Under the pieces are notes generated by a model. That model had not been told where the DNA came from and did no database searches. It saw only the letters and a list, made by a program, of their open reading frames with translations. DNA of 64,000 nucleotides from a virus (Duplodnaviria > Caudoviricetes), in the IMG/VR virus record IMGVR_UViG_3300028888_000053, positions 96,001-160,000 of that record; one strand, given 5' to 3'. A program made the position numbers and the translations under genes. Shown here piece after piece: positions 8,032 through 36,016 of the stretch. The first letter of the stretch is position 1. Every line of letters starts with the position of its first letter.

Positions 8032-9435
8032 TCATTCAGATTTAATACCAATCTTTGCTAAGGCGTCTCTATTAAGTGATGGCGTTGTTTTTTTACTCGT
8101 TGTTTCTTTACTCTTTTTATATCTTTCATAATCGTCTTCACCCAAACTAGCTAATGTCCGATTCGCCTTCTAAATTCTTCTAAATTTTTCCATTGTCGGT
8201 TGTTTGTTAAAATCTAAGATCATAGAATCCAACTAATCCCAAGTATTTATAGATTGTCTACCTTTAGGATCTGCTACTACTTTACCATCTCCGTTGAAGT
8301 AATAATTAACACCATTAACTGTTTTTACTGGCTCTTCTCCATTTAATTGAGCTTTGGTGTATTGAGCAGTACCACCACCTTGATGTTTCTTCACTTTACC
8401 ACCACAAGCCATCTAAGCCTTAATGGCACTCATGACTTTACTACCACCACAATTCTTTGTGATCTTTTTTCCACATTTTGCCTATACTGGTTTATGAACC
8501 TTATTACATACTGGGCACATAGTTCCGCCTTGTTTCATATAAACTAATTCATAACCCTCAGGACAAATCTTCTTGAGCTCTTTAATATACTCTAACTTAG
8601 CACCACGTTTAGCACTTTGAACTCGTGCTGTTTGTTGTGCTGCTTGTTGCATAATACCTTTAATAGTACCTGGCTGTTGTAACTAAGCTAAAGCCTATGG
8701 CTCTTTTTGCTGAATAATACTAGCTCCCTTCTTTACTAACTATTCATTCTATACTAATTCTGCAAGAGAATTAGGATCTTGAATGTATGCGGGAATAACT
8801 GTTTGTAAGGCATCCTAAAGTGTTTTATCTGGATTGGCACCAATAAATGCACACATACCTAGTAAAACAACTTGTTCATCCTGGTCTAATTCAGCCTGAC
8901 CAGAAGTCAATTGGCCTCCTTGTTGATGTACTGGTTTAAAACTACTACTCTATCCTAATAACATGTCGTGTTCGTTATCATATAATTTTGTTGGATCATC
9001 TGGATCTACATATAAATATCTATCGTATTCAGGAAAATATGTACTTATTGTTTGTTGAGCATATGGATTTGGTGTCCAACTTAAAGAATAAGTATCAATT
9101 CCTTTTGCTGCTTGGTCCCAAATAAATTTTTTAGCCTAATTCTTAGCTGTATTAGACATATTAGATGGATCATATTCTGAACGAGCCTTGTCCCAATTTT
9201 TTCTACTCTAACGAACAAGGTTTTTCACCTCGCGTCTAGACCATCCGTTACTTCCATCCCATCCCTTTACACCATTATTTTGATTATTAGCGTAACTAAA
9301 CTTCTCTCCATCAAAATATGCAGTAGTTGGTGAAGCGTTTAATCTCTATCGTAAAAATTTACGATTTCTTCTACCTTTGTACTAAGCAGCATTTAATATC
9401 GCATCGTATGATTGATTAAAATCAAAATCTGCCAT
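8032..9435 (-). CDS. TAG-recoded 467-aa protein with repeated K-x-GG motifs; probable virion internal/cargo protein
   Basis: Continuous frame with TAG=Q; motifs HQQGGQL, AKRGAKL, MKQGGT, KNCGGSK, MACGGKVKKHQGGG; also CPEG...CPVC. Confidence 0.7.
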
Positions 9436-10279: not shown

Positions 10280-10307
10280 AATCATTATCATTTTTAATTG
10301 TTAAACA

Positions 10308-11877: not shown

Positions 11878-12753
11878 ATGTACGAAAATCATGCATTAAA
11901 ACTCGTTCCGCGATACAAGAAAGGAAGTGGAATACATATAAAAGAATCTACTAAAGGAAGCTTTACCAAATACTGTAATGGTAAGGTTACTAATAAATGT
12001 ATATAGCGAGGCAAGAATAGTCCTGATCCAAAAATTAGAAAGAAGGCTATCTTTGCTTAGAATAGTAGAAAATGGAAACATTAGTTTGGTGGATTAATGT
12101 GGGCTGATGCTATGCAGTTTGATTATAATACCTTTTAGAAGTCAGGACTACCTGCTAGCCAACCTCATTCTACACAAATGGATATTGATGCTATAAATCA
12201 ATAGCTAGCTTAGAATATGGCTCAAAAACAAGCTGACATATAGACATAGAAATTAGAAGACCAAGCAATAAGCAAAGCTAATAACGAAAAAGCTGAAGGA
12301 TTAACTAATTCAATATTAGATGGAGGACAAAAAATTGCAATGTCATTTGCTAATGCTGCAGCAAATGCAAAACAGTTTAATAATCAAGCCGATCAAACAA
12401 AATTAGAAGAAACACTAAAAAATAAAGGCCTATTAGATAAATATAAAGCTGGAGAAATTACTGCCGCAGATGCTTATGCTAAAGCTGGAGGAACTAGGCT
12501 GAAGTTTAACTAGGATGGATCTTTACAATTACGCCAAATTAAACTTACTCCACAGCAACTCGCTCAACAGCAAAACGATCCAATGGCTTTGTTATAGCAA
12601 TTCATGCAATTTTATCAAGCTCAATCAGCTAAAAAAGGTGGAAAAATTAAAAATAAAAAAAGATTAATACCTAAAGTACATCAACCATTTGGACATGTAT
12701 CTGTACTTGACGATACTGGAGTTATTAATCCTAGAACTTTAAAATTAAAATAA
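11878..12753 (+). CDS. TAG-recoded basic/Q-rich protein with K-x-GG motifs; probable virion internal protein
   Basis: MYENHALKLVPRYKKGSGIHIKESTKGSFTKYC...KKAIFA*NSRKWKH*FGG...AKKGGKIKNKKRLIPKVHQPFG; absent from the ORF track because of TAGs. Confidence 0.75.
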
Positions 12754-13826: not shown

Positions 13827-14227
13827 CTTTATTTAATTGACATTATGAAGAAAGTTGTTTTTCAAATTTTATTTTCCAATTCCATATGATTCATAATAAT
13901 ATACATTATTTAACGGAGCATAACAAATTTTTACTGCACTCTTTGCTTTGTCTTTAAATTCTTTTGGAATAAAAATTTTATTATACTGATAAAGTTCTTC
14001 CACATTAGGCTTTAATGCCTATTCTAAAGTTAACACTAAAACATTTTCCATATTACTTAACACTGATTTTATTTAATTCGTCCTGCCAATCAAGGAAATG
14101 CTGATCATTTTCAAACTCTAGCTATCTCGCAAAATTATCAATGAAGTTAGCTTCTTTTATACTTCGTTTAAATGCCTTACATAACATTTTAATCTTATGA
14201 CGGCGACGAATCAGTTTATACTTTTCT

Positions 14228-14802
14228 TTAATCTTCTTCAACATAAATCACTCCTGGTTCTCTAATGTCAATAGCTACAAAATCTCTAGCTTCACGCTCA
14301 TTCTTCATAACCATTTCTTGAGTTAAAATTTCTCCTGTATTGGAGTCAAAAATTTTTCTAATTACTTTGTTTCCAACTGCTCGCATATTCCATATATTCA
14401 TTAATCCAATGTAGCTCATTATCTCTTACATTATGTCCAATCTAAATAGCATAATTTAAAAAATCTGTTAAAGACATTAGTCCATTATATACAATTTCGG
14501 AAGGTACTAAATCATCAATTTTCATAAATCATCCAATCATTAATGTTAAAACCTTTTATCCCAATACCTAATTCATTATTATAAATCATATTATTTAAAT
14601 TATCATAAATAGATATTATAATTTCATTAGTGTATTTATTCTTAAAAAAATAATAAGGAATATCTTCTAATTCTTTTGGTTTTTGAGTTAAATCTTCATC
14701 ATACTCAATAATCTCAACATCTTCTAATGATATTCCAAGTTTTCTTAACTTTTTCTCCAAATGTACTGGAGAATATATTTTCCCTTTATATTTAAATTTC
14801 AT
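14228..14802 (-). CDS. two small hypothetical proteins (14228-14419, 14515-14802)
   Basis: Track ORFs co-oriented with the suppressor tRNA unit. Confidence 0.55.
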
Positions 14803-14814
14803 AAGCTTTTAATG

Positions 14815-14890
14815 TTGGGGTAGTGGGAGTCGAACCCACTTTAACACGGGGTTAGAGCCCGCTGCATGAGAACCGTAATGCTGCACCCCA
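14815..14890 (-). tRNA. amber suppressor tRNA, anticodon CUA, Gln-type acceptor stem
   Basis: TGGGGTG/TACCCCA acceptor, anticodon arm GCGGG-CT-CTA-AC-CCCGT, T arm GTGGG-TTCGACT-CCCAC; U1-A72, G2-C71, G3-C70 as in bacterial tRNA-Gln. Confidence 0.9.
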
Positions 14891-14899
14891 ATCACTATA

Positions 14900-15352
14900 T
14901 TAAACTTTTTGTATTTGCTTTCTTAACCCCTCAATTTTATTATCTATTACTGTATTGACGCATCGTTTAAATGTATCTGTTCCTCTTTTAATAAGTTTAA
15001 AATCAATCGCCTTATCAAAAGCTTTACTTAATTCATTTAAAGAAATAGGACTGTGTTTTGAATATAATTCACAAGTCTCTTGAAAGACTTCATCACTAAT
15101 AGCATCAATATCTTTCTTAAACTGTTCCACATGAGCATTAATAGCATTTTTAATTGCTACAGCTCTTTGTTCTGCACTATTCTATGTTTCTGGCTGATCT
15201 TTTAAACCAGATACTTCAGGAGTATATCCAGATGTCATCCGAATAGAATATCCATGATCAGTAATGTCATAATTAATTGTAGTATCACCAACTACCAACT
15301 AACCCTTACCAGGCTTTAACTGTTTTAACTGTTGTATTAATTCATGTATCAT
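14900..15352 (-). CDS. hypothetical protein (TAG-recoded, 150 aa)
   Basis: MIHELIQQLKQLKPGKG*LVVG... extends track ORF 14900-15130. Confidence 0.65.
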
Positions 15353-15398
15353 ATTAGTAAAATTTAACGTTATTAATTTGTTTATTTTATCTAATGCA

Positions 15399-15426
15399 AT
15401 TATAAACAAATTTTCAAAAAATGCAA
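15399..15426 (-). promoter_or_regulatory. putative promoter TTGCAT-N16-TATAAT for the suppressor-tRNA unit
   Basis: TATAATTGCA core identical to the 35.35-kb promoter. Confidence 0.5.
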
Positions 15427-15473
15427 GTTTAATATAGTTAAGAATTGTTAAAATGATTGTTAAAAAAGATTAA

Positions 15474-17141
15474 TCAATGTATGTTCTCAAGAAAATCGCT
15501 GTTTTCATCAATAATTCTTTTTATAAAAGCCATATAGTCTTTTTTAACTATTTGTAACTACTATTCTTTTACTTTAGGATCTCCATTAAAATTCTACCAT
15601 TTCCACTATCTTCTATTTAAATTGACATATTCTTTTTCCTACTATGACGTTAGACGGTTATTTTCTCTTATTAACTCAAATTTTTTCTAATTTGACAGTC
15701 CTTCTGGTCTTCCTCTTTTTGGCTTTGATGCATTCTAAACAGTTTCTTCATTTTTCAAGTCTTTATTAATACGCTGTTTTGTTATAGACTACAAATGTAA
15801 ATCATCATCAAATTTATCTTCTGGCTTTACTTTATATGAAGTTTCTACAACTTTAACAGTTCCCTAACCAGGTGTATACATTGTTGTTTCTGTTACTTGC
15901 TACTATGTAGGAGTAATCACTCTAATATTTGGATCAGCCTATGCATTTCCAAAATAAGGTCTTATCTTATGACCTTTTAAAACTTCATATTTTTTTCCAT
16001 TACGCTCAATAATACTTCCAACTGGAATTGCACTTGTTTGATTAGTTTTCGGAACTAAAGTAGGAATAGTAACTGGAGTTTCAGCAGCTCTTAAAGGCGT
16101 AACAATTGGTTCTGGCCGAGATCCAATAAGCTTTCTACCATCAATACTACCAATCATATCCAAATAAGCAGTTGATGCAGCAGGATCTTTTCCAATTAAT
16201 TCCATCATTTCTGGATCTTCTGCAATAAATTCAGACCATACTGGCTATTTTAATCCCTATTCTGCCAAAGACAAAGATGTATTATCTAATACTTCTTGCC
16301 TAGCAGGATTACCAAACCAATTGCGGAAATTATCAAAGTGACCAACAAGTCTTTGTAATACTGGTAATTCCGTAGCTCTTTCTGCAATTCTTTGCATTCC
16401 CTTCTTTGTTACAGCGCCAGCAGCTTTACGTACCAAACCACCAACCTAATATTTTCTTTTAAAATTATTAATTGGACCACCATGCTTTTTAGCTTCAATT
16501 CTTGGACGTAAAGATTCTGTTCTACCTCCATAGGTAACAGATGAAGGACTAATAACTGTGGCTGGAATATTACTTCCTGTTACATTTTTAACAGTTGGTT
16601 TTAAATAATATGGAATTTGTTTAATATTACGTACTATATTATTAAATCCTTTTCTCCAAGATTTACCAGCAATCCAAATTCCTGGATTGGTAAAATTTGC
16701 AACGATTGGATTAATATCAAGTTGTTCGCTAACAAATTCATTCCATGGTTTGCCAGTAACTTTTGTTGTAAGAGAATCCACACCAGCTCCAAGAATTTCA
16801 GCTTTAGCTAAAGGTTTTGCAACCCAGCCAATATTTTTCCCTAACTACATTACTCCATTTGTTAAACTAGACGCAGAAGTCAAACCTCTGCCCAATGGAT
16901 GTAATAAGCCAATTACAGTAGCAGCGCCCGCTGTGGCTAAAGGTAATGATACTGGCTATTCGCCACTAAGCTAAGATCCTATTGAACCAACTAATTCGTC
17001 GCTTTTTCTACGTATCCAACTACGATTTGCCGGTTCGATTTTTGCATCATGGTATTCTTCCGCATTAAACTTTGGATCAATATAAGTTGTAATATTAAGT
17101 ACTCCAGATGGATTCTAATGTTTTTTAATTAGTTTTTTCAT
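15474..17141 (-). CDS. leader-array protein A (555 aa, TAG-recoded)
   Basis: MKKLIKKH*NPSG leader; Gly/Ala-rich segment plus TGK...NPG module; internal KKHGGPINNFKRKY*VGG; joins track ORFs 16446-16781 and 15939-16208. Confidence 0.8.
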
Positions 17142-17164
17142 TTTTGTCATTATTTATATTGCAA

Positions 17165-17965
17165 TTATTTATTCTAAAAAGATTTATTACGTAGCTCTAA
17201 TACTTCTTGTAATTTTTGTAAACCAATTTGATTTCCACTCCTCTTTGCTCGTTCTACTGCTGTATCAATAGCTTCCTAAGGCATTTCCTTAACATTTTCT
17301 GGAGTTATAAATCCTGTATCCATTGTTTTAACATATCTAGCAAATGGCATTAAATCATACGGCTTTTCCATATGATGATATATAGCCTGTATAACATCTT
17401 CTGAAGCATCAGGAAAAACCTAACTTACTAAAGAAGCACCAATAGGACCATGCCCGTCGCCAGATAATAATTTGCCAGCATCATGTAATAATGATGCGGA
17501 TACAGCATCTTGCTTAGAATAACCATTAGGCTATGTTACCGCAAATGCGCGTTTTGTTACTAATTTGGAATGATCCCATGTCGTAGGATCATTAAAATGC
17601 CATGCTGGATTTTCTAATCTTAGCTAAGCAGGATATATACCAGTTTTACCATACTATGTCTACAAGCCACTAACCACTTCATTCATGATAGATCGTACTT
17701 TATATGGATTAACTATACCATTCTAGTCAACTATTTCAGAAATTGAATGAGTTGGCCCTGTATATGGTATATAAGTATTGCCAGAAGCTAATCTTGACTA
17801 TTCTACATTAAATGGCATATTACGTTTATGAATCGGTAACTTAGTTTCTCCAATAACTCGCATCATAGAATAAGGATATTGCTTTTTAAACATATATGCA
17901 AGAATTGGTTTACGAATTAACTTAGTTAAAAATCCAGTATAGCCTTTTCTAATTAATTTTTTCAT
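17165..17965 (-). CDS. leader-array protein B with HD-domain phosphohydrolase (TAG-recoded)
   Basis: MKKLIRKGYTG leader; WH...TWDHS...SLLHDAGK...GHGPIGA...IYHHM...KTMD. Confidence 0.75.
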
Positions 17966-18010
17966 AGTATTATTTTTAAAATATTTAATACATTATCGTT
18001 TATTTTACAC

Positions 18011-18056
18011 ATTATATATCTTATTATTTGAAAAATCAAGTATTTATATTTAAAAT
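18011..18056. promoter_or_regulatory. divergent promoters (TTGATT-N17-TATAAT on -, TTGAAA-N17-TAAAAT on +)
   Basis: - boxes at 18034-18039 and 18011-18016; + boxes at 18028-18033 and 18051-18056. Confidence 0.55.
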
Positions 18057-18099
18057 TGAATTTATTAAAATATAATACTCATTTTATAAAAATAACATA

Positions 18100-18426
18100 A
18101 TGGAAGAAGATATAAAATATAATTCAAAAGAATGGAATGACGCTTATTTAAATTCTAATATTCATCGATTATATTCTAAAGACAAGCCGCTATCTCCACA
18201 AGATCCATTAGTAATGGCGTTTCTACCATGGAAAAAACTTGGAAAACTAGGAGCTTTATTTGGAATTAAAAAACTATCAGATAATGCATATGATGCATAT
18301 CAAAAACGTTTGTAGGATAAAGAGGTCTCAGAATAGAAAAATAAAAAGAGGTTATTACCAAAAATAAAATTTTGGCAAGATGCTAATCTTTTAAAATATC
18401 CTATTACATATGAAATTAATTAGTAA
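18100..18426 (+). CDS. hypothetical protein (TAG-recoded) ending with a KNKKRLLPK motif
   Basis: Track ORF 18100-18315 reads through TAG to TAA at 18426. Confidence 0.6.
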
Positions 18427-18736
18427 AATAATACACTTCTTTAATTTTATTCCTAAACTTAATTATATAGAATACAATAACAACTTAGAAAAAGAATTAC
18501 AAGAATATTTTTTAAATGGGATAAAATACTCTGATTATATTCTAGACAAATTTTTACCTTATATATTATATAAATGTAAATTAAAAGGTCTCTATCCTAC
18601 AAGGCACGAAATTAGTAAATATTTAAAAAAAGAAATATCTTTTGATTAGATTAGAAGTAAATGGCAGGAATTTGAGTAGAGTAATCAAACAGCTGAAGAT
18701 TATAATCACATTATAATTAATGGATGTCATTATTAA
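18410..18736 (+). CDS. hypothetical protein (TAG-recoded)
   Basis: Track ORF 18410-18649 reads through two TAGs to TAA at 18736. Confidence 0.55.
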
Positions 18737-18755
18737 TTAGATAATAAAATAAAAA

Positions 18756-18793
18756 AAATAAAGCCAGGCTAAATTAATAGTCTGGCTTTATTT
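18756..18793. terminator. bidirectional terminator
   Basis: aaataaagccaggcta-aattaa-tagtctggctttattt between convergent genes. Confidence 0.75.
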
Positions 18794-18796
18794 GTA

Positions 18797-19318
18797 TTAT
18801 TTCTTAATAAAACTAGTTCCTTCAAATTCTCTAATCTCCCCTGTCTTACTATCTTTATATTGTAATACACCTTTACTACCAGGTATAAATCTTGGATCTC
18901 TACTTAACTTCTATAATCCAGCAACAGTTCCTCTTGTTGCATAATTACCAGGACCAGATTGTGGAAATAATATTTCAGCTCCTTCTGGTAATTCATCATA
19001 TAAAGCATCAAATAACTATTGCTTTTCCTCCTATGTAATTGTTGCTGGAACTTTATTCTACACATCATCCCAAGTTCTTATATGAACATAGAACTTATTA
19101 TTTCCTTGAGGTTCTAATACAATCTATCTTGGTTGTACATTAGTACTACCTGGTAAAGATAATCTTATCTTTCCATTACTCTATACTTGTTTTGTTACAG
19201 CTGACTTAGGAGTTGATTTAATTAACTTTGGTAATTCTTTAGCAACCTTAGGAGTAATGCGGTTTATGATTTCACCAATAATTTTACCGCGTTGATTCTT
19301 TGGAATTAAGTGTTTCAT
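18797..19318 (-). CDS. leader-array protein C (173 aa, TAG-recoded)
   Basis: MKHLIPKNQRGKII leader followed by a globular domain of unknown function. Confidence 0.8.
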
Positions 19319-19839
19319 TATCGAATAAGATCAATTTCAACATTTGGGTCATTTATGCGTTCTGGGTGGTTTGTATATATATACCTAGGTATTTTGTAGC
19401 CATTCCGGATCTATAATGATGGATAAGGCTAAATTGGAGTCAATGGAATAACATCTCCAATTTCAGTTTGTGGTATATCTATCCACTCAGGAACATTATC
19501 AAGTTGAGTTGTACGTAATGTTTTATAAAGATTTTCTGTATATGGTAATAACACCATATCGTTGTCCAAAGATACTGGGCCAACAATACCAAAAGTTTCA
19601 GTTTGCGGCTACTCTATTGATTTTACATATCGAAATGATTGATATGGAGCAGTTTTAGAAACAACAGCGTCAGTTGCCTATACAACAGCTTTTGGATTGT
19701 TTGATTTTGGAGTTTTCGACGCACGGGCTAGGATATATTTAATTACCTTCTATGCCGTTGGTGCCAATTCTTTGCTTACAATTGGAGCAGCCTTTCGTAC
19801 GATAGCTCCTGCTTGATGTTTTGGAATTAATTTTTTCAT
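19318..19839 (-). CDS. leader-array protein D (173 aa, TAG-recoded)
   Basis: MKKLIPKHQAGAIVRKAA leader; TAATG and ATGA overlaps with neighbours. Confidence 0.8.
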
Positions 19840-22800
19840 TGTTCTTGATTTTTTAAATAACGTGGATCATAATATCTATAAAGTGTTCTCCAATCTTTAT
19901 CTGCGATTAAATTTCTAACTGTAGGATTTGATAAATCATATCCTTCATCTACTAAATGTTTGATGTTTTCTCGTTTATTCTTATTAGACATATAAGCCAT
20001 AAAATTAGCAAGTGTTAATCCAACTCCAGCTAATCCCCAACCTAATCGTTTATTCATAATTTTATTTTGATTATACCAAGATTCTATATTGTTGTTACTT
20101 AGCTGGAGATTATTCTCACTAATAGCATCCCTCGTTTCGCTATCCTATTTTCTAATTTCGTCTCTGCGTTTTTTGTAATGCTGTAATGATTTTTTTGCAT
20201 CTGAACTATTTTTCTATAATAAATATCGTTTTGTTGATACTTCTTTATGTGCTTTTTTAATTTTTTGTCCGATCTCAGTTAATTCGGATAAAATTTTTTT
20301 CTGTTCTTCGAGAAATTCAGCAGAAGTATAATTATCGCTATTCGCTCTTAAATAATGTAATTGTTCTAACAGGTCATATCTGCGTTCAGTCAATTTGCTA
20401 TATCCGTCGATATAACGGAATGGACTCGGCATACTATATGGTCTACGTCTTATAGTCAAAGTTTGAAATGGATCCTAATTCAGTTCATCAATGAAATAAG
20501 CCTCTCCTCTTAACCATTTTCTATACTGTTCTTTTGGAATCTTATGATATCTATCTAATAATGCTTCAAGTTTAGATAACACTTCTTGTTTTACACTTGG
20601 AGGAGCTTCAATAAGGCGAACGCTATCATTATTTCCAGTCGATTCAGATATTGCTTTTAATAAAGATCCTAATTCTGGATGATTTTTCCGAGAAACAATT
20701 CTAGCACCCGATGCAATAGGTTCTGCAAATCCGCCAGAATATCCCATGTCATACAGTCCCATCTATAATGTTACTGGAACATTCTGTTCTTTAGATTTAT
20801 TTCTTAAATCGTCAATTACTTTATGTTTATATGTTATTGAGTTGGTCTTATCAATCGGAAAATCAGCTAAATCTCCATGGTAAAATTCTGGGCTCAAGCT
20901 TTTCTAAAGATGTTTAACCTATTCAACCAAACTATATGGAGTCGTTATTTTTTCTGGCTTATATGTTAATGGACGCTAAGTAATAGCGGCTACATTTCTG
21001 TAATAACCAGTTGCGCTTTGCCCTGGACGCCATCCTCCATATGGGTTTAATAAAGCAGTATTTATTCCTGCACCAGAACCTGTTCCTCCAGAAAATGCTC
21101 CATCGCCAGTAAATAGTTCTATTTTAGCATTATGATATGGTAAACCACTTGCAGTTTTTTCTGCTACTACATCGTTACCAACCATCCTTACTCCAGTAGA
21201 CATTTCAAAATTGTATGTATTAAATACATTACGCATCAACTATTCATCTGTAGCAAATTTTTTAGCTTCTTCTTCACTAATATTTAGAACTTCTTGTAAA
21301 AATTTTGCATTTGCTTCATAGTCTTTAAAACTTAAATTAGGATATAATTCAGTACCCAATTTAAACTAAGATCCTAAATTTGTTTTACCTAGATTCTACA
21401 ATGCCTACGAGTAGGACTACTAAACTTTCGGATCGGTATTTAATAAAACATTGAACTATCGTATTTTATGCTTCACATTATCTGGCTTTGTAAATGTTTC
21501 TGCAGAGACCATATCACTTAATAAATGTCTTTGCATGTTTTCTGGATTTCTTAACAACTAAAATAAATCTTCAGCTTTAATTGGTAATGGTAAATTTTCT
21601 AGATCATCAATTAAGAACTACTGACCTTTATAGTTTGATGGATTCATAGTATAATCATAGGCCAATTTACTATATTCCTCAGGAAATAGAGATCTATAAA
21701 TCTAATGAGCTAGTTTACCAGTAGCAAAGCCATCAGCATTTTCATCAATAAGATTAATTTCAGTATCAACATTGAGATGGTCTAAATCATGTGCTCTAAA
21801 TGTATAAGGAGAAGTTCCTTTCTATCCGCCAATACTATTATTTCGATACTATTTGAATTCTAATTTTTTCTTTAAAGACTCTAGACGTGGTCTAGTTGTG
21901 TAAATTTCAGTATCAGCAGGACCAATTAACTTGTCAGATTTATCTAAACTTCCTTTTATAAGTCCATTTCTATAACTTACCAAAGATCCAGCAACAACAC
22001 CATCGCCTCCCATTTTATTTTCTAATTCAGTAATGTATTTACCAATAGATTCCTAAATAGGTGCAGTATCTCCAGTTATAATCGGAAACCCACCTGTCGT
22101 CCTGGTAGTTTCTAAGGCCGAGATATCTCCAGTATGCTGCCATTGTGCTTTATTTATAACTTTCTCCAGTGTTCGATTAGATCTTTGTACTGTAGCAGAT
22201 TTCCCTAAAACAGAAAGTGTCTACGCATCATTTGCAGAATGGGCGTCTAAAATTATTGGCTATTTTAATGATACCTAGAAGGACTCAATTGGAGGTAACT
22301 ATTTCTAATAAACTTTACTCCTAGTAATTTGTCGACTTTTTGCATCTCTTTTTTGTTCAGACAAAACTCTCCAATCAACAGATCTACTATCTCTATTAAG
22401 CTTTATCTTCTCACTCTCTATTTCATTTATTTTATCATATAAATCATTTATCTTACCCTGTACCGTTGCAGACTATACCTTTAATGCGTCTTGCATCGTT
22501 TCTAAAGCGTCTTCCTCTTTTTGTAATTCAGCTTTCTTAGCTTTAAGAGATCTTCTTTTACGCAAAGCATCTCTAAGTCCAAAATTCTTCGCACCTAGCG
22601 CAAATCCAGGATTAAAAAACGAAGCTACTGTTTCTGGAATATCAAACATAGGTGCTACATATTCTCCAAAATTTTTACCAGTAGCAATCTTCATACCACT
22701 ATCAACTGCTTCTCCTCCTATAGCTCCTTTTACAAGAGCCGCACCAAAATCTAATGCTTTATCTTTAATGAGCTATGGATTAGTACGTACTGTATTATAA

Positions 22801-23189
22801 ACAGTTTTTACAGCTCCAGGAATTGCTTTTATCACTGCTGGAGTTCCTTGTACTACCGTCTTAGCTTTTGATACTGGGAATGCTATGGATAAAGCTGGTA
22901 CGAACGTTCGTTTTATACCAACCAGCGGATTGGTATTATTTTCCATACTCGCTATCCATCTATCTCTAAATCCAGTAGGAGACCAATAATCCTAATTTCT
23001 TCTGTCTGAAGTTCGCATATCAATAGATGGTTCACCCTCCAATTCGGTTAATTCATCACTAACTTCATAAGTATCATTGCCAGTAGCTTTATCCCATATA
23101 CTTCGTATTAAACCAATAGGAGTTGTTGGATATTCTTTTTGTCTAATAATTTTACCACTGTGCTAAAATTTCTATACTAATTTTTTCAT
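19836..23189 (-). CDS. leader-array protein E (1117 aa, TAG-recoded) with nucleotidyltransferase-like domain
   Basis: MKKLV*KF*HSGKII leader; five track ORFs share one frame; GVVAGSLVSY...PADTEIY...VDTEINL resembles the pol-beta NTase motif. Confidence 0.7.
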
Positions 23190-23195
23190 AATCAA

Positions 23196-24350
23196 TTATG
23201 GAATAACAGCTCCTCTTAGAGCGCTTTCTAAATGATCTGGATTATTCTCTAATGTCCATAACCATTGATCATTTAAACCATTTTTTACTAAATATTCTAT
23301 TTGCTAGTCTCTATTTAAAGATTTTAAATAATCAACATGAGAAGTAGGAGAAATATTTAAATCCTAAAGTTTTTCATATCCTTTTCCAGTGTGATACTTG
23401 TAAAAATCAAACTAAGAAATAGGAGCTTTATTATATTCTCCATTATATTTTGGCGTTACAACTAATCCTTTTACAGTCTCCCATTCTAAAGGAGCATCTT
23501 CTTTAGGTACAATCCATATATCCCCATCTACTTGTGTTGTTAATCGGTGTGTAGATGGCTATCCTTTAGAAAACATAGGAACAGAATATCGTGAACCAGA
23601 TCCTTCCTAAGTAATAACACCATACTTCTTATATGATGGTAGCGCTTTTGCAGTAACCTATCTATAAAATTTTGCTTTAGGTAATTTGGATAAAAATTTT
23701 ATTACTGTTCCAACCTGTCCCTTTGGAATTAACCTTCCACCAGAAGCTCTCTTATAATAAGATCCCCCTAAAGCCTCAACAATCCTATTAGATCTATTTA
23801 GACCACTAGCAGCAGATAACGCAGATTCTAACTTACTATGTAATCCACTTTTTAACGCATCAAGAATAGAATTAGTATGCTTACCTAAACGATATAGTTT
23901 ATACCGAGTAGAAGCTACTGCAGCTAAAGCAGAAGGAGTAATCGTATCACCTGGAGTCGGATTTGACTTAGTTCCAAAACGTTCATTATAAGCGTCTTTA
24001 ACTGCTTTTACACCTTCCTGCATTTTATTATACGTCCAATCATCCACTTCTTTTGCTGGAATTGGTTTTCCACTAAACCAATGTTTAGGAGCATCTGAAG
24101 TTTCAGCTACTCCATCACCAAGTGTCATAGTACCCCTACCAAGCTATGGATTATATACTCCATCTGAATAAGCTGTATAATAACGGCCATCTTTGGAAAC
24201 ACCTTTATTAATATTATTTTCAGCAGCATGAATAACAGTTTTAGATAATGCTGGATCTAAAACTTCTTCACCTCCACCATATTTCAAAACATGGCCTTGC
24301 TTATATTTATTTATATTAAGTAACTTTTTCATTAAATTGCTTTTTTGCAT
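23196..24350 (-). CDS. leader-array protein F: T4-type lysozyme domain plus second leader plus C-terminal ART-like domain (TAG-recoded)
   Basis: MKKLLNINKYKQG; AAEN...YTAYSD...GTMTLGDG...ALAAVASTRY...NRSNRIVEAL; junction KRASGGRLIPKGQVG; then KFYR*V...YGVI...PMFSKG. Confidence 0.7.
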
Positions 24351-24462
24351 ATAATATTAATTCTTTTCTTATGTTATAATACTTGACATCATCATATTTA
24401 ATTTGATTTATTATTGACATATTTTAATAATTCATCAACTCTTGCGTACAATTATATAATTT

Positions 24463-25062
24463 TTATTCTAATATAATGCGTTTTGGAACTTTTATATCCT
24501 CAAACTACCACTGTCCATTTACCTTCTACCAACTCCTAATCTAAGTCGGTAATTTATCACCAGGAAAGAAAGCAATAGAAGACTCTTCTGGAAACCATAG
24601 AGATCCTGTATTCTAATAATCACTAATACTGCCAGGATGAACGGACGTAGATTTAACAGGAGCACTATAATGACCACCACTCCCAATTCTTACCATTAGA
24701 TTGTCATCTACAGGAGTAGTTAAATATACTGGATTATCAACCATAGAACCATTTCTCTATGATAACATTTTGCGTTCAACGTAACTTCCAGGCTAATAAA
24801 AAGGAGAACCAACACGCCAACCATACGCTTCATGATTTCCTGTATTTGGACGTATTACAAAAGTTCCATCCTCTAACATAGAAACTTCTTTTGGAGTTGT
24901 AGTTCTATAAATAACACCCTTGTCATATAACTAAGGATGTAGACCATTTTTTACAACTTTGTCTAATGCCTTAGCTACAGATCGACCACGAATGGCTCGC
25001 TATGTCATCTACAATAATTTTAATAAGCCTCCAATCTAAGCTTTTGAAATTAATTGTTTCAT
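24463..25062 (-). CDS. leader-array protein G (199 aa, TAG-recoded), possible ART-like domain
   Basis: MKQLISKA*IGGLL leader; VIYRTT...GWRVGSPFY. The CDS is well supported, the domain call is weak. Confidence 0.7.
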
Positions 25063-26150
25063 TTTAATTTACCTCCATGTTTCAGCCCTCTTCCAAAGAC
25101 TGGTTTGAATTTTGCAATATTTTCACTAGTAGCAGGAAATGCTATATACTAATCAGATATACTCACTGGATCTTTAAATGGCACCGTAAAAACCATATGA
25201 GTGTAATTTAAATCAGTATTAGGAATATATCTTGATGGAACTTGACCGAACCCCGATGGGAATGGAATAGGATCCATGGTTTTTGTTAGATATTTATACG
25301 GAATATTTAATAAATTCTAATCACCTAAAGCATCCAATAAACCATGAGTATGTATTCCTGCTGGATTTATTTTTATAGATGATTCATGAAAATCCGGAAA
25401 TCTAGAAGACCAATCAGATGATTCAAACTTTGGCATATAAATGTATGCCTCGTTTCCGTAATGCATACTTGGATCATTAACAACCACAGGACTGCCAACA
25501 TCCATTCGCCCATTTCTAATAGTTAAAAAATCCTCTTCAGTAAACGGTTTCCCACGCATTGCGCCAGAACGCTAATTAGCATTCATACGTCGCATAAAAG
25601 TATTTCCATTCTTAACTAATTCGGCAATATATGAATCAACATCACTAGTTTTTCCAGATTTAATATCAGCGTAAACCTAACTAGTATATTGAGGACTCTA
25701 CTATACCACATCAAATAACCTAGGATCGGTATCCTAGATTAATTTTATTTTGTCCCAGTAAGACTGTTTTATACGCTCAGCATTATCCAACTATTGTGGT
25801 AATGAGTTAATTGAACTCCAAGCTTTATCTGAAGTCCAATAATTATTAAATGCCCTATCAACATCGTTATGTTGCAATCCTAATGCAAAAAAATTATTCA
25901 TCATTTTACGCATAAGCGCAGGATGGATATCTGGAGCTTTACCTTGATTATATCGCCACATAAAATCATTAGCTACTTCAGGATCTGTTAAAGATGCAGC
26001 CAATTTTTCACGTATATATGGATTCTTTAATCCAGTACCAGCTTTATTATATGCTTTTACTAAACTAGTAGTAGCTTTCGGAGCTTTTACTAAACCTTTT
26101 GCCAATCTAAATAATAAACCAGCCTATCCTTTTTTAATTAATTTCTTCAT
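25059..26150 (-). CDS. leader-array protein H (363 aa, TAG-recoded)
   Basis: MKKLIKKG*AGLL leader; joins track ORFs 25791-26105 and 25317-25559; ends LKHGGKLK-TGA. Confidence 0.8.
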
Positions 26151-27151
26151 TTCTATTTATTGTTTTTATCCTAATTCTACATTAATGTAATACCACCAGC
26201 TACTGGTAACGCATAGCCTCCTACATACATCATAGCCTTCCTAAACTAATCAGCCTTCTCAGGAGTTAATTTTCCATTCTTCTTTAAATACTCAATGTAA
26301 CGCCTACCATAACCATTAGCGTTTTTAACAGCAGCAAAAATCTCTTCATCAGAAGCATCATCTATCACAGCATTCTAACCATCTATCATATCTGGTATGC
26401 CCTTAGATAAAGGATCCTAACTATATTTAACACTATTAGTGGGAACTTCATTCCAAGAAAACTATAATAAGTAATCCCTAGCATCCCTATTAGTAGTGAC
26501 CCTCTCCCTGTCCATATGCTTATAACCTTTTAATCCTTCATCTGAATTGTTAGGTAAATTTATAAAGTCATCATCATAAGCGTCACTTAAATACTTATGT
26601 AACTCATTAGGCATATCAGACCTATAATCAATCATATGCCTACCTTCATGCTTTAAAATCTAAGAGGGAGTAAAACGCTTTGAATCCTTGTTAACACTAA
26701 TGAAAAACTTATCATCATTATAAAAACCTTCAAAATCAACACCAGCAGCAGAGTAAGTCTAACCACTATACTAACCAACTTTAACTTTATGCATTAATTC
26801 ATTCAAATGCTACTTATACTGTTCAATCGCTCTTTCACTATAACCAGCATTCCTCATCGCTCTAATATTCCTCTCAATAGTGTTCTCAGATAAATGAGTA
26901 ATAATATTATCAGGTAAACCAGTAGTCACATTATTCATCTTTAAACCAAAGTCGTTACCACTAATCTACTGACTAGCAAAATATTTAGTTAAAAAATCCT
27001 TTGTGTCTTTATCACTCCACTTAAAATCACCAGTTTTTAATATGGATTTTTTGGGGAGGATTTTAGAAGACTTAATAATAGATCTTAATAATTTTAAACC
27101 TAACTAACCTTTAGGTAATAATTTCTTCTAATGATAATCTTTATTAATCAT
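26147..27151 (-). CDS. leader-array protein I with zincin metallopeptidase domain (TAG-recoded)
   Basis: MINKDYH*KKLLPKG*LGLKLL leader; EGFYN...FISVN...ILKHEGRHMID; hydrophobic C-terminal tail. Confidence 0.75.
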
Positions 27152-28371
27152 TCTACACTATTAAATATATCATGTAAATATTGCTTATAATCTTTTACAA
27201 AACCACTCGGAGTAGGAACCATCTCCAAAACAGTATTCTTAATGTAAAACTTAGGATCAGACTAACCATTAGACTTAAACCACATATAATTCGCAAAAGT
27301 CTCTTCAGGATCACGTCCGTGACTATTTAATGTCGCATTAAAATACTTAGAGTATTTCTTAGCTATAGGATGTTTAGGATTTGGAACAAAATACTTATTA
27401 GGAAACCAACCCCAACGCTTACCCTAATATTTATTTAATGAAGGTGTGCCAAATGTCCTTTGTAACCAGTGTTCATAAGCATGAGTCTATTCATGAGCAG
27501 CAATACCTTTTAATAAATCTTTATCTATAATATTACTATTATAAGGAGAAAGCTACATATTAATCTATCCAGACCATGGATGATAAGCACCAGCAGACTC
27601 TAATTTAGACTTTAATACAACATTATTTGGTTCAGGAAAAAGTGTTCCAGTAATATCCTCATACTACTTTCTTGCAAAATTCTAACCCTCTGATATGGCT
27701 CCTCTGGCCTACTATACGGCACGCCTCAATGATGCCAAATCTTTAATATAAGTACCATTACGTAATCCCTTAACAACATCTAATGGCTATCTCAAAATAT
27801 CACCAAAAGCTCTAGCATGCCACTGATATCGCTTTGGAACAATACTATCAAATTCCCTTGTCGTAAACTCTAAACCATGACCTTCTAATCGACCAATAGG
27901 ATAGCCAATTAAACCACCTAAAAAACCATTAGGTAAATGAAACTTATTATTGGTCTTTTCGTTGAAACGCTTAGTAAAACCGTTATTCTAATCAACGTAA
28001 TGACCCATATTACTAAATACAGCACCTGTAACATTACGTATAGGATGACTTAATATATCCTTAACAGCCGAAGAAGTCAAACTAGAAATAGACTAACCTA
28101 ACATCGGATTAGTTAATAATAAAGGAGTACCAATACCAACCTAAGCTAACTTCATTAAATCCTCACCATAATGAGACTAAGATAAAGACTTTGCCTCAAT
28201 ATTCTTAATGTTATCACGCTCCATCTCAGGAGTGTTATAACCCATACTCTAACGCCTGTCAGTAGTGTATACAGGATTACCATTACTATCATAATGAGAT
28301 ATGTACTTGCGAGAAGCATCAATAGTAACCTCTGGCAAAGTACCACCTTCGTAAATCTTTTCGTCTTCCAT
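27148..28371 (-). CDS. array protein J with zincin metallopeptidase domain (407 aa, TAG-recoded)
   Basis: MEDEKIYEGGTLPEVTI...; AGAYHP...INM...GIAAHE*THAY...PEETFANY (TAG inside the HExxH motif). Confidence 0.75.
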
Positions 28372-28698
28372 ATGTTATATTATATTTATAGTTAATAAAA
28401 ATTACCCCTCATAGGGGATAAGGGAAATATAAGAAAAATATGAAAGAAAATCAAATATTTAAGAGAGAAAAGAAAATTTTAAAGATATAGGGTTAAAAAA
28501 TATCCCCCCCTGGGGTGTTGAGGGGAAATGAGAGGGGAGGGGGGGAAGAATGGAACGTAAGTGAGCGTTAGTGAAACGTAGAGTGGAACGTAGAGTTGAG
28601 AAAATATGGAAGGGGTGGAGATGAGGGTACACAACCTTCTTAGTCCCCCCACCACCTTGAGTTATAAAACAAATACTAACCATTAAAATTTACACACA
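28372..28698. other. strand and genetic-code switch region; candidate genome terminus or packaging site
   Basis: Non-coding; G- and C-homopolymer runs; gtg(a/g)aacgtaga tandem repeat; divergent gene orientation on either side. Confidence 0.45.
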
Positions 28699-29112
28699 AT
28701 GAAAAAGTATTCTGAAATCAGGGAAACTAAAGAGTTCGCAGAAGCCACCACGAACAAGAAGTTCAAAAGCGTACAGAAAGGCTTTCCCGAAGGAAGCCAC
28801 AACGTGATTGTTCTCGGCAGTGACGAGGATTTTACCTTCAAGCGTGACGGTAAAGACCAAGCCGTCGGTATGGTTAAGGTTCTCGTGTTGCCACAGGACG
28901 CCACCACACTCACGGACGACACTCCTTGCGAGGTGAACCGCGTGGTTCAGGCCTCGTTGGCCAGTGCTATCGGCTGTTACAGTGACAGCGAGTGGACGAA
29001 AGCCGCTGAAGATGGCACTATCTTCCCTATCGAGGCACACCGTATGGCTCCCGCGACGGAAGACGAGTACAAGCGTGGCAAGGGTAAGATGAAGTTTACC
29101 CGCCGCGGCTAA
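28699..29112 (+). CDS. first early protein, hypothetical
   Basis: 137-aa ORF, visibly more GC-rich than the late arm, followed by a strong terminator. Confidence 0.8.
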   Translation: MKKYSEIRETKEFAEATTNKKFKSVQKGFPEGSHNVIVLGSDEDFTFKRDGKDQAVGMVKVLVLPQDATTLTDDTPCEVNRVVQASLASAIGCYSDSEWTKAAEDGTIFPIEAHRMAPATEDEYKRGKGKMKFTRRG

Positions 29113-29150
29113 AATAAGTAAGGGGCTTTCGCCCCTACTTATTTTTTTTG
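29113..29150 (+). terminator. rho-independent terminator
   Basis: aaataagtaaggggc-tttc-gcccctacttatttttttt. Confidence 0.85.
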
Positions 29151-29178
29151 TCCACTATATATATAGTGGTGTACGAGT

Positions 29179-29946
29179 ATGGGGATTACAACCATTAAAC
29201 TGATTAAGCAGGGAACTTTTTTCTATCGTGAAGACACAGGTGAACAATACTTGATGTTTCCAGAGAATTTTCATTTGAGTGATGGTGTATATTATGCCAA
29301 CATTTCTGGTGAAGAGAGATATGGTGACAAAGTGTTTCATATCTGTTGTCGATTGCAAAAGAGTTCTTTGTAAATTAAGCCCGTGAACACTAAAGTGTTG
29401 TGTAGAGTGATACTACCACGGGTAACTAGTATTAGTGTTGTTTTTAAGTGGACCCAGTACGTGAGTATAGGGTCCGCTGCTTGTTTTTTTTAAAACCTCT
29501 CACTAGTGGTTAAGTGTCGGAAAAAGATGAAAGAAGAGATAAAAGACGCAATTAAAGATCTCGCAATGTTAGTCCTGCCCATTCTGGGTTTACCAATAAT
29601 GCTTGGTCTTTATGTGCATCAAGTTTCTGAGAAGGAACCTGTAGGGCACGAAATGCCCTATTGCGAGTTGCCTGACTCTGTGACGGAGGTATGGGTGCAA
29701 ATTACAGCCTATCACTATAAAGGTCAGAGATTCAGATTTCCAAATAAGCGAAACATATATATACCAGCAGAAATGAAGATGAGAATTGTAGATAATAAAG
29801 TTGTCAATGATCACTTCAGAATGGTTGGTGATGCCAATGAACAGATATATCAATTTCGTGGCAAAAGGTTGTTTTGCTTTGGAAATAAACTCATTAAGAC
29901 TGATGATGCAGACATTCTTACGATCATGAATGAAATATCAAATTGA
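29179..29946 (+). CDS. two early hypothetical proteins (29179-29373; 29527-29946 with N-terminal TM)
   Basis: Track ORFs on the coding strand. Confidence 0.6.
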
Positions 29947-30007
29947 AGTCATTTTGCTCTCAGGTGGGCTTTGTACGCGAGTATAGAGTCCACCGTTTTC
30001 TTTTAAA

Positions 30008-30289
30008 ATGAAGACATTTTTATTGAATGCCTTCTCGTTGCAGATGGTAGACGTGCCATGCTGTGTAAAGTTTGAGGAAGTTGACGAACTTCCAGATGGA
30101 CTAACCTCTGCAATTGGTCATCAAGATACAGCTAACGTTCTTGGTGTTCCAATGAACAGGATTAATGTTCATCTCTCTCAGGGTGATATTGCCTATGTAG
30201 CTCAGCTGCAAGGTGGTAGACTTCCTGAAGGGTCAACAACCTTACCTGAAGGGTTCTCCTTCAAGTACATCAAGGTTGTAGTAGACTAG
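30008..30289 (+). CDS. DUF1874 / AcrIII-1-family viral ring nuclease (anti-type III CRISPR)
   Basis: LLNAFSLQM...SAIGHQDTA...NRINVHLSQGD...YVAQLQGGRLPEG matches the family signature including the catalytic GH. Confidence 0.85.
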   Translation: MKTFLLNAFSLQMVDVPCCVKFEEVDELPDGLTSAIGHQDTANVLGVPMNRINVHLSQGDIAYVAQLQGGRLPEGSTTLPEGFSFKYIKVVVD

Positions 30290-30404
30290 CGAGAAGACAT
30301 TGTTGGGTTCATCCTATACCCAACGCGTAGACAAAATGGGGTTGACTTGAGAGGGGTTCAAATAGAAATTCCTCACAGTACTAATCTATTCAATAAAACA
30401 AAGG

Positions 30405-31240: not shown

Positions 31241-31289
31241 GATGGTTTGTTGTTCTAGGATTGTCAGTACGTGATGTATAGACAATCCA

Positions 31290-32150: not shown

Positions 32151-32249
32151 ACGGTCAGGCTTCTCGTGAGGGAGTGATGGGTTCGAATCCCACAAGCCTA
32201 CAACAAACTTTTAAAACCTAGTCCTGTAGAGGTTAAGGCTCGAGAAAAG

Positions 32250-33294: not shown

Positions 33295-33417
33295 TCTTTT
33301 TATAGACCATAGTTAGATGGGTTAAGTTAAGTGGTTTGCCGATCCTGTTACTAATTAGTCGCAATACAGGACTATATTCCTAAAAACGTGAGAGGAATAT
33401 TTTTTTGCACCATTTAG

Positions 33418-35872: not shown

Positions 35873-36016
35873 AGAGGAGTAGCTCAACTGATAGAGCGTA
35901 GCATTTTAAATTATACAAATAGTGTCGAAGCCAGACATCAGTACTATTGTAACAAAATATCATGTAGATGTGATAAGTTAATGCTAAGGTTATAGGTTTG
36001 AATCCTATCTCTTCAA
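35873..36016 (+). pseudogene. degenerate tRNA-Lys(TTT) with a 71-nt insertion (35907-35977) after position 34
   Basis: Exons rebuild TAGCA-TT-T|TT-AA-TGCTA; T loop TTTGAAT and D loop are degenerate; insert starts TAAA and ends GTGATAAG. Confidence 0.65.

Follow-up and report, generated by a model that had tools for sequence, protein, structure and literature searches.

The internal proteins IPI, IPII and IPIII of phage T4, together with Alt, share a capsid targeting sequence that ends in an (L/I)-x-E site cut by the gp21 prohead protease, and the ip loci of the T-even phages are polymorphic. In encapsulins, the cargo-loading peptides are short and linear, lie mostly at the C-terminus and attach directly to the shell protein; the cargo is not ejected. 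In crAss001, a phage of the same virus order as the one studied here, the cargo protein gp45 is present in both capsid and tail, and its ejection is believed to begin with the N-terminus (PMC10172136). In the structural work on gp45 (PDB 7QOG, 7QOI, 7QOJ, 7QOL and 8CKB; Bayfield et al. 2023, PMC10172136), the portal-bound resolved domain starts at residue 425, on a motif of the KAFGG/NAFGG type, and the protein is described as one continuous chain running from tail to capsid across two such joints. For the polyvalent proteins of phages and conjugative elements, delivery with the DNA, sometimes with processing, has been proposed (Iyer et al. 2017, PMC5512222).

The window analysed here is a 64,000-nucleotide stretch of the 212-kb genome of an uncultured, gut-type jumbo crassvirus with Pfam matches to muzzle, capsid and ring families. 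The nearest GenBank records to its clade are two unannotated contigs. When TAG is read as glutamine, window positions 15474-28371 on the minus strand hold ten co-oriented ORFs, from 173 to 1119 aa long, most of which overlap a neighbour by 1 to 4 nt, whereas table 11 yields fragments of at most 156 aa; the proposal that recoding hides this array is thus confirmed. Recoded TAG occurs in every array gene, as in the structural genes. Two 108-aa ORFs on the plus strand (18100..18736, from the ORF list) interrupt the array; in relatives this position is taken by a larger block, one gene of which, 298 or 395 aa long, begins MTQIIN.FKRKYQ.GG. The array lies within the late minus-strand block that contains the portal, terminase, capsid, ring and muzzle genes. 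The gene order array, exonuclease, GroES-like gene and TerL recurs in the relatives L003/L010 and L017, with the portal gene as well in L017.

Nine of the ten genes begin with a shared leader where the sequence-only reading had placed it, the exception being g407 (27148-28371). The consensus is M-K-K-L-I-x-K-x-Q-x-G, 11 residues, with the core L-I-x-K-x-Q-x-G(G). A strict regular expression, L[ILV].K.[QY].{1,2}G within the first 25 aa, matches 7 of the 204 non-overlapping ORFs of the 212-kb genome, every one in the array; 5000 composition shuffles give 0.07 matches on average and never more than 2. A looser pattern, scanned in six frames over the whole genome, gives one open-frame match outside the array, at window position 12658 (+) in the neighbouring ORF o291, and one stop-interrupted match upstream of the window. 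The looser motif is modestly enriched in late proteins (6 against 0.8; 17 against 7.2), which we count against a cargo role for the array. It might be supposed that the leader is an effect of chance or composition, MKKLI being a frequent start that favours translation in AT-rich genomes; G+C content here is 31.5%, and the leader is written in the commonest codons. Yet the genome has just five MK.L[ILV] starts, all of them in array genes, composition predicts the tail.K.[QY].{1,2}G with a probability near 0.001 for any one gene, internal copies exist, and the motif recurs in other lineages. The genome-wide scan and the shuffles refute this idea, to which we give practically no credence.

The conserved Gln is encoded by TAG in five leaders and by CAA in three (g266 has Tyr), and the Gly codons vary among GGA, GGT and GGC, which indicates conservation and selection at the protein level. 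The peptide is genuine and under selection, and the payloads that bear it are unrelated. It had been suggested that the array is missed because TAG often falls inside the leader; TAG does lie inside five of the nine leaders, but it makes up 63% of all Gln codons in the array genes, so the leaders show no special enrichment.

The genes, all on the minus strand, are as follows. The first, g407 (27148..28371; 407 aa), which has no leader and no Pfam match, contains HEQTH, an HExxH motif; in the near-identical phage L001 its position is occupied by an unrelated 245-aa gene. The next, g334 (26147..27151; 334 aa), contains HEGRH and has weak, sub-threshold Pfam matches to DUF6782, a putative metallopeptidase family, and to Lysozyme_like; its AF2 model (pLDDT 34) is unusable. 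Its leader, QKKLLPKGQLG at 27098-27130, begins seven codons past the ATG, with the first residue at 27130, and the L001 counterpart carries MTKKLLPKGQLG at the very start. In g363 (25059..26150; 363 aa, C-terminus ...LKHGGKLK) the leader is MKKLIKKGQAG at 26118-26150, and the orthologues P0001 (85% identity) and P0002 (60% identity) keep its core. The leader of g199 (24463..25062; 199 aa) is MKQLISKAQIGG at 25027-25062, and that of its L001 orthologue is MKKLIPKAQIGG. The two-module protein g384 (23196..24350), again lacking a Pfam match, has the divergent leader MKKLLNINKYKQG at 24294-24332, and its N-module looks lysozyme-like by eye. Of the leaders as first described, all nine stand, although that of g384 is divergent and that of g334 is displaced.

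The largest member, g1119 (19836..23195), has the leader MKKLVQKFQHSG at 23154-23189; next come a conserved EGEPS..D.R segment and one rich in Gly and Ala. Two 173-aa proteins follow, g173b (19318..19839; MKKLIPKHQAG at 19807-19839) and g173a (18797..19318; MKHLIPKNQRG at 19286-19318). The HD-domain phosphohydrolase g266 (17165..17965; MKKLIRKGYTG at 17933-17965) matches Pfam HD at E 8e-8, above the curated cut-off. The last member, g558 (15474..17150), has a Gly/Ala-rich segment and the leader MKKLIKKHQNPSG at 17103-17141. By BLASTP, the payloads are mutually unrelated, as had been claimed, except for a 61-aa Gly/Ala-rich segment common to g558 and g1119. Among the payload types named earlier, only HD is borne out by Pfam, zincin is suggested by HExxH motifs and sub-threshold matches, and ART is a weak lead in one relative only. 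Most payloads have no recognisable function, which counts against a cargo role. Beyond the array, the last gene of the row, o169 (14900..15409, minus strand), may, by eye only, carry a degenerate leader, ..KQLKPGKGQLVVG; the leader profile finds no match in it.

Copies of the leader absent from the earlier list occur inside g384 (GGRLIPKGQVG at 23709-23741), inside g558 (INNFKRKYQVGG at 16437-16472, containing FKRKYQVGG) and near the C-terminus of o291 (KKRLIPKVHQPFG at 12655-12693). The core is preceded by Met at gene starts and by Gly-Gly inside fused proteins. The description of the leader as N-terminal therefore holds for nine gene starts, but comparison of these proteins indicates that the motif is a module-joint motif, not a purely N-terminal one. 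Among relatives, leader genes that are neighbours in one phage correspond in another to one fused protein. The MT835470 leader protein of 981 aa, to which g1119 residues 47-205 are 32% identical, consists of a first part equivalent to the 450-aa module of L003, then KKRIKKAQQG, a middle domain, AGGIIKYQEP and the C-terminal module of the L003 340-aa protein. P0068 has three motif copies, and the wording of the g558 leader is found internally, as GGKLKKFQNPSG, in a 395-aa protein of L015, another near-identical phage. The late protein o467 (8032..9435, minus strand), whose gene separates the terminase genes from the GroES-like gene, contains K/H-Q-x-GG several times (HQQGG, KKHQGGG); genes in this terminase-adjoining position in L003, L017 and MT835470 carry Q-x-GG/KGG copies, a likeness of position and motif.

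The joints lead to gp45. Residues 14-82 of o291 (11878..12753, plus strand; 291 aa) match part of gp45: a PDB sequence search returns 7QOG chain M, Cargo protein 1 gp45, at E 6.3e-16, and BLASTP gives 57% identity over 61 aa. This shared module of 60 to 70 residues ends KHQFGG in o291. A second gp45 relative, P0046, occupies the C1 cargo position of another crassvirus, after the Ring2, Ring1 and muzzle genes and ahead of a giant protein of 3980 aa. P0046 shares 54% identity with residues 261-335 of gp45, another gp45 module, and it has nine Q.GG motifs against 1.0 expected. Its module joints carry K-x-Q-x-G-G, and three of its modules are copies (identity up to 86%) of what in L003 is a separate leader protein of 150 aa. 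Two gp45 modules end KAFGG and NAFGG where proteins of the P0046/o291 type have K.Q.GG. The basic N-terminus, Gly/Ala-rich segment and GGK-rich C-terminus of gp45 are features also found in g1119, g558 and g363. Since the leader peptide also stands at the joints of known virion-carried crassvirus cargo proteins, the array genes are probably packaged cargo. Against this, no array protein is detectably homologous to gp45 or gp46, the neighbour o291 alone being so; crAss001 virion proteins have no shared N-terminal leader, only degenerate aromatic-GG joints. In addition, the gp45 gene directly follows the muzzle gene and encodes a single long protein, whereas here there are ten separate genes, which adjoin the end of the late block where terminase and portal lie, some 70 kb away from the muzzle gene and the genes in the cargo position.

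The same joints could mark a proteolytic processing site, with polyproteins or propeptide-bearing precursors cut at or near Q-x-G-G by an array HExxH protein or a host peptidase and with N-terminal copies as short propeptides. The motif stands exactly at the joints of fused proteins and at the gene starts of split ones, C-termini often lie just past GG-K-L/I (g363, P0002, the L003 450-aa protein), and the array has two HExxH proteins. In another lineage, a leader protein matches MPTase-PolyVal below threshold (E 0.003), and for P1 DdrB, a packaged polyvalent protein, autoproteolytic processing has been put forward (PMC5512222). But no head-protease family is detectable, the residues after the Gln are highly variable, with bulky ones included, which is unusual for a cleavage site, and gp45 is described as continuous across two such joints. 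Moreover, a free-standing gene needs no cleavage site, yet it has the full motif at a fixed distance from Met. We regard cleavage as unlikely to be the main role of the motif, although it is compatible with docking.

Gene content varies between near-identical phages, as the sequence-only reading anticipated. L015, with 98.8% TerL identity, lacks g173b and has an extra 281-aa gene; L001 has an extra 396-aa gene besides the replacement of g407. These changes bear on the view that the leader is an inherited joint that does little by itself, a flexible linker remaining at gene starts after fission and kept as the only DNA common to the cassettes, hence mediating recombination and shuffling. The g173b deletion joint in L015 falls inside the 27-nt leader, leaving the g173a body with the hybrid leader MKRLIPKHQSG, the window and L001 become homologous again precisely at the g334 leader, and fusion and fission occur at the motif. 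However, most array indels end in intergenic DNA, not leaders; what is conserved is the amino-acid sequence, with synonymous codons varying freely; and Met always lies three residues before L-I. The core is also kept in L003, L017 and MT835470, whose terminases are only 37 to 47% identical, and survives in orthologue pairs just 27 to 32% identical overall. A functionless remnant consequently appears improbable to us.

We rate just as low the notion that the array proteins are unpackaged, late intracellular factors directed by the basic leader and the stretch after it to DNA, membrane or an assembly or lysis site. Most members do have a strongly basic stretch after the leader, and in six of the nine leader proteins the first 40 residues have a net charge of +8 to +10; the array adjoins a putative M15 cell-wall peptidase gene, and the by-eye lysozyme-like module would fit. 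But the array proteins all lack hydrophobic stretches strong enough for a signal peptide or a transmembrane segment, the motif is common to the gp45-related cargo-position protein and the gene matching a gp45 module, and whole-gene turnover is typical of host-directed, conflict-type genes, not assembly or lysis genes.

How, then, does the array compare with the other systems? Like the T4 internal proteins, it places a short common N-terminal peptide on the unrelated products of clustered genes, and its gene content, like that of the ip loci, differs between close relatives; head loading and delivery with the DNA are here proposed. The array motif differs in being basic, in ending Q-x-G(G) without an (L/I)-x-E end, and in working also as an internal joint. 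A search for head-maturation and prohead protease families found none, so the leader is not a cleaved capsid-targeting sequence of the T4 type, and the analogy drawn earlier fails on two defining points, the (L/I)-x-E end and the protease. With encapsulins the proposed likeness is a short linear peptide that would address unrelated enzymes to the interior of an HK97-fold shell, but the tags do not resemble the leader in sequence. Polyvalent proteins (PMC5512222) resemble the array in having mixed enzymatic domains (peptidase, lysozyme, nuclease-like) among late or virion genes, and relatives of this phage fuse several modules in one chain; the modules here are mostly separate genes linked only by the shared peptide. 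No PolyVal Pfam family is above threshold, the MPTase-PolyVal match being the only one, and the word "linker" is absent from the text of Iyer et al. 2017 (PMC5512222).

The explanation that we favour, tentatively and at somewhat short of even confidence, is that the array genes code for separate cargo modules that have a docking handle in common. The leader would be a linear docking element on each module, recruiting it into the cargo zones of the virion during assembly and perhaps serving also as a processing site. The payloads, which comprise an HD phosphohydrolase, a pair of HExxH proteins, a module of lysozyme-like appearance, large proteins rich in Gly and Ala, and several orphans, would enter the host with or ahead of the DNA. 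New here are the sequence link from a leader-array neighbour to the proven virion cargo protein gp45, the presence of the motif inside proteins at module joints with leader genes fused in relatives, and whole-gene gain and loss among phages with 98.8% identical terminase, once by recombination within the leader. Judged from such comparisons, the array genes are probably a swappable set of packaged, injected proteins; the set evolves by whole-gene gain and loss together with fusion and fission at the motif.

Under the standard code, window positions 14000–30000 yield short fragments only. When TAG is read as Gln, ten co-oriented genes appear on the minus strand, running from 28371 down to 15474, most of them overlapping by 1 to 4 nt; as a sequence-only reading had claimed, the array is hidden from standard gene calling. 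The products are, in order, 407, 334, 363, 199, 384, 1119, 173, 173, 266 and 558 aa long, and the genes are called here g407, g334, g363, g199, g384, g1119, g173b, g173a, g266 and g558. Nine of the ten carry a common leader of 11 to 13 residues, approximately M-K-K-L-I-x-K-x-Q-x-G, located where that reading had placed it. All nine listed copies are present, although the g384 copy is divergent and the g334 copy is not at an ATG here: it begins seven codons past the ATG in this genome and at the very start of the protein in the related contig L001. The payloads beyond the leader are mutually unrelated by BLASTP, also as proposed.

The leader is enriched well above random N-termini. Of 204 non-overlapping ORFs in the 212-kb genome, 7 match a strict form of the leader, L-[ILV]-x-K-x-[QY]-x(1,2)-G, in their first 25 residues, and all 7 belong to the array; 5000 composition shuffles give a mean of 0.07 matches and a maximum of 2. 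A chance origin is thus excluded. With a looser pattern, a six-frame scan of the genome finds one open-frame match outside the array, at window position 12658 (+), and, upstream of the window, another that a stop interrupts. Since all five MK.L[ILV] starts in the genome belong to array genes, the leader is not an ordinary AT-rich ‘MKKL’ start.

TAG falls within five of the nine leaders; the conserved Gln codon is TAG in five and CAA in three, and the Gly codon is GGA, GGT or GGC. Because the Gln and Gly codons vary, conservation lies in the protein, and the variation at synonymous sites rules out a DNA-level repeat. A special role for TAG within the leader is likewise ruled out, as TAG is simply the main Gln codon, accounting for 63% of all Gln codons in the array genes. 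Among orthologues, positions 2 and 3 of the leader drift (K, N, H, Y, R, Q, T), and the L-I, K, Q and G are fixed. In most of the proteins the leader is followed by a strongly basic stretch (in six of the nine, the first 40 residues have a net charge of +8 to +10), compared with a net charge of −3 over the first 40 residues of the leaderless g407. None of the array proteins contains a segment hydrophobic enough for a signal peptide or a transmembrane helix, and, for want of a hydrophobic core, a signal peptide or lipoprotein signal is ruled out.

The motif is not confined to N-termini. It lies between the two halves of g384 (GGRLIPKGQVG), mid-chain in g558 (FKRKYQVGG), and at the C-terminal end of o291, a 291-aa ORF near the array (11878–12753, +), as KKGGKIKNKKRLIPKVHQPFG. 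These internal copies have Gly-Gly where the N-terminal copies have Met-Lys. Looser K-x-Q-x-GG copies occur in the late protein o467 (8032–9435, −), in a 163-aa protein, and in proteins of 105, 1649 and 638 aa encoded downstream of the muzzle gene. Overall, [KR].Q.GG is modestly enriched in late proteins (6 against 0.8 expected) and shows no enrichment in early proteins (0 against 0.2).

The window covers bases 96001–160000 of a virus record that is 212,277 bp long, is rated complete and has 31.5% G+C. By its family matches the phage is a crassvirus: Pfam detects crAss_MUZ (E 2e-19), Crass_capsid (E 2e-12) and, weakly, CrAss_Ring_2, and the portal and terminase match crassvirus PHROGs. Its TerL shares 28% identity with those of named Crassvirales and 43 to 46% with those of two unannotated GenBank contigs. 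All late genes are TAG-recoded and occupy the minus strand between about 0.8 and 124.4 kb of the genome; the early block, on the plus strand from 125.5 kb, has almost no TAG. The array forms the promoter-proximal end of the late block and adjoins the exonuclease, GroES-like, terminase and portal genes. The order array, exonuclease, GroES-like gene and TerL recurs in the related contigs L003 and L010 and in the 172-kb contig L017, where the portal also takes part. The GroES-like (Cpn10) gene itself, at window 9689–10291 between the array and the terminase genes, is kept in at least three lineages, including those of L010 and L017.

The array lies about 70 kb from the muzzle gene and so is not in the position of cargo protein 1 (C1), which follows the ring and muzzle genes directly and precedes the giant RNA-polymerase-like genes. 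That position here holds proteins of 409, 105, 1649 and 638 aa, of which the last three have related N-termini, ..Q/S-GG. Between the muzzle and cargo-position genes, at genome positions 36252–38679 (8252–10679 of contig L013), are a gene of the zinc alcohol-dehydrogenase family and one for a DUF192 protein, which a virion module would not usually contain.

Three further features of the genome are recorded here. Where the late block gives way to the early one, some 5 kb (window 28400–33400) have 38 to 48% G+C against a genome mean of 31%, contain almost no credible ORFs and give no Rfam match at gathering thresholds; a structured RNA may be encoded there. Among the tRNAs that ARAGORN predicts in the whole 212-kb genome, none has a CUA anticodon, yet in-frame TAG codons in the late genes number more than a thousand; the TAG suppressor may be intron-bearing or supplied otherwise. 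Finally, a 144-nt Rfam tRNA match at window 35873–36016, between two normal tRNAs, is consistent with an intron-containing tRNA.

Among the domains that the sequence-only reading had associated with such payloads, HD is found: g266 has a Pfam HD match (E 8e-8), the sole solid family assignment in the array. For a zincin payload the leads are HExxH motifs in g334 and g407 and sub-threshold family matches. Pfam gives metallopeptidase and lysozyme-like matches of this kind for g334, and MPTase-PolyVal (E 0.003) appears in a leader protein of contig L020, from another lineage. For an ART payload there is a weak lead to ART families (ART-PolyVal; Atlas feature score 0.77) in an extra 396-aa gene of L001. 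As judged by these searches, the other array payloads are orphans. No PHROG matches any of the ten proteins, Pfam finds only the HD domain in them even at E ≤ 5 (the g334 leads apart), and searches of PDB sequences with g334, g407 and g1119 give no match. An AlphaFold2 model of g334, made with its only orthologue, has a pLDDT of 34.

A leader profile recovers 66 proteins among 5.8 billion. An exhaustive profile search of 1.84 billion representatives returns just 7 cluster representatives at E ≤ 0.001, a small number attributable to the shortness of the motif. DNA pattern scans add further low-GC contigs with leader genes, and L017 has three in succession (MAKLIPKFQQG, MKKLIPKYQTG and MKKLISKHQQG). 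Samples with close relatives are represented by the runs or assemblies DRR595518, DRR595543 and ERZ27291679. With g1119, tblastn against GenBank phages gives one short match and the related-locus search gives none.

The proposed variability of the array is evident from contigs almost identical to the window, which differ from it by whole genes. L015, whose TerL is 98.8% identical, lacks g173b and has an extra 281-aa gene. The leader of its single 173-aa gene, 27 nt long, can be aligned with each of the two window leaders, and the encoded protein is a hybrid, so g173b was lost by recombination within the leader. L001 and L002 have the additional 396-aa gene together with a 68-aa ORF, and in L001 g407 is replaced, homology to the window resuming exactly at the g334 leader. 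Genes have also been fused and split at the motif. What L003 encodes as two neighbouring leader genes, of 450 and 340 aa, matches the two ends of a single 981-aa protein of the GenBank relative MT835470, which has KKRIKKAQQG and AGGIIKYQEP at internal joints. Inside a 395-aa protein of L015, the wording of the g558 leader is found again. The motif might be taken for a vestigial or recombination joint, which would fit the one deletion joint; this is at odds with the deep conservation at the protein level, and we hold it to be distinctly unlikely.

Small, very basic proteins of a widespread family (P0013–P0066 in our searches) start MA-x-VKKAQ-x-G and have a Cys/His-rich C-terminal module, ..WIQKAVNPKHKGYCTPMTK.TCTP.RKA..; no Pfam family covers these proteins. 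About five such genes stand in a row at 8043–10858 of L009, a 223-kb metagenome contig, and the module occurs three times inside P0046, a protein of another crassvirus. Two small basic leader proteins, P0010 and P0069, have no tblastn match among GenBank phages.

A connection to known cargo comes through gp45, the C1 of Bacteroides phage crAss001. According to the cargo passages of the structure paper, crAss001 virions carry gp45, gp46 (C2) and three giant polymerase-related proteins; gp45 residues 214–245 are bound to the tail rings and 425–552 to the portal, and ejection of gp45 from N- to C-terminus is proposed (PMC10172136). The models deposited for crAss001 are 7QOG, 7QOI, 7QOJ, 7QOL and 8CKB. 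Next to the array, o291 matches gp45 in PDB entry 7QOG (‘Cargo protein 1 gp45’; E 6.3e-16, 57% identity over 61 residues). P0046, a 1626-aa protein found by the leader profile, is encoded after Ring2, Ring1 and muzzle genes and before that of a 3980-aa giant protein. It is 54% identical to gp45 residues 261–335, contains nine Q.GG against 1.0 expected, and its three Cys/His-rich modules correspond, at up to 86% identity, to a free-standing 150-aa leader protein of L003. Modules end on K-x-Q-x-GG in o291 and P0046, as against KAFGG (331–335) and NAFGG (424–428) in gp45, and the resolved portal-bound domain of gp45 begins on NAFGG. Among the ten array proteins, sequence comparison finds no homology to gp45; it is found in the neighbouring o291 and, elsewhere, in P0046. 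A leader in the crAss001 virion module is ruled out, as none of its virion proteins shares one at the N-terminus. Among the proteins compared here, presence in purified virions is documented for crAss001 gp45 only (PMC10172136).

The loading of unrelated proteins into a phage head by a short tag is known from T4. The likeness to T4 capsid targeting lies in a short common N-terminal peptide on clustered, unrelated proteins, nine of ten in this case. The T4 leader ends in (L/I)-x-E, a prohead-protease site, whereas the array leaders end in Q-x-G(G) without Glu. No head-maturation protease (Peptidase_S77, S78, S49, CLP_protease, Trypsin_2 or C48) is detected at E ≤ 1 in six frames of the complete 212-kb record, a search that could miss a divergent enzyme. 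On these two defining features the analogy drawn in the sequence-only reading fails. The same results bear on the possibility that the motif is a proteolytic processing site, which would fit its presence at joints and the HExxH genes of the array; with no protease found, and with the retention of the whole motif by free genes left unexplained, we regard this as unlikely. The words protease, scaffold and cleavage are absent from the crAss001 structure paper, which says nothing of a common address peptide in its cargo passages (PMC10172136). We found no paper that describes a common leader or joint motif for the cargo of crassviruses.

The array differs from the gp45 family in sequence homology and in its position away from the ring and muzzle genes. 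In content and context it is like the polyvalent proteins (PMC5512222) but is mostly split into single genes, and no PolyVal Pfam family is found above threshold. Polyvalent proteins combine, in one chain, at least two effector domains of a typical set that includes MPTase, ART and ParB-like domains. Multi-module proteins do occur, with two modules each in g384 and g558 and at least three in the MT835470 protein.

We suggest, with confidence somewhat short of even, that the array is a set of free-standing cargo modules sharing a per-module handle, most likely a docking peptide for virion entry. The handle would be a linear peptide that brings each module into a cargo zone of the capsid or tail, and the payloads would then enter the host with the DNA. 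The link to cargo is through a neighbouring gene and a common short motif, not through homology of the array proteins. That the array proteins instead have a non-packaged intracellular role appears improbable. It is tempting to go further and propose a crassvirus linear code, basic-x-(Gln or aromatic)-x-Gly-Gly, marking every protein unit bound for cargo zones, although we consider this doubtful. A single peptide would then join the modules of the long C1 cargo proteins and also, at the N-terminus, give an address to free-standing effector genes that are rapidly exchanged. The idea is partly testable at the bench because degenerate joints (KAFGG, NAFGG) are present in crAss001, which can be grown on Bacteroides intestinalis.

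No phages are more abundant in the human gut than crassviruses, whose particles contain unusually large zones of protein cargo. A conserved peptide linking a hypervariable array to gp45-type joints is a concrete, mutable candidate for the signal by which proteins are chosen for these zones. The array, which standard gene calling hides entirely in TAG-recoded phages, also points to proteins that vary from strain to strain and may be injected into Bacteroidota hosts. If the linear code is true, crassvirus cargo would be plug-and-play, and addition of the tag could in principle load foreign proteins.
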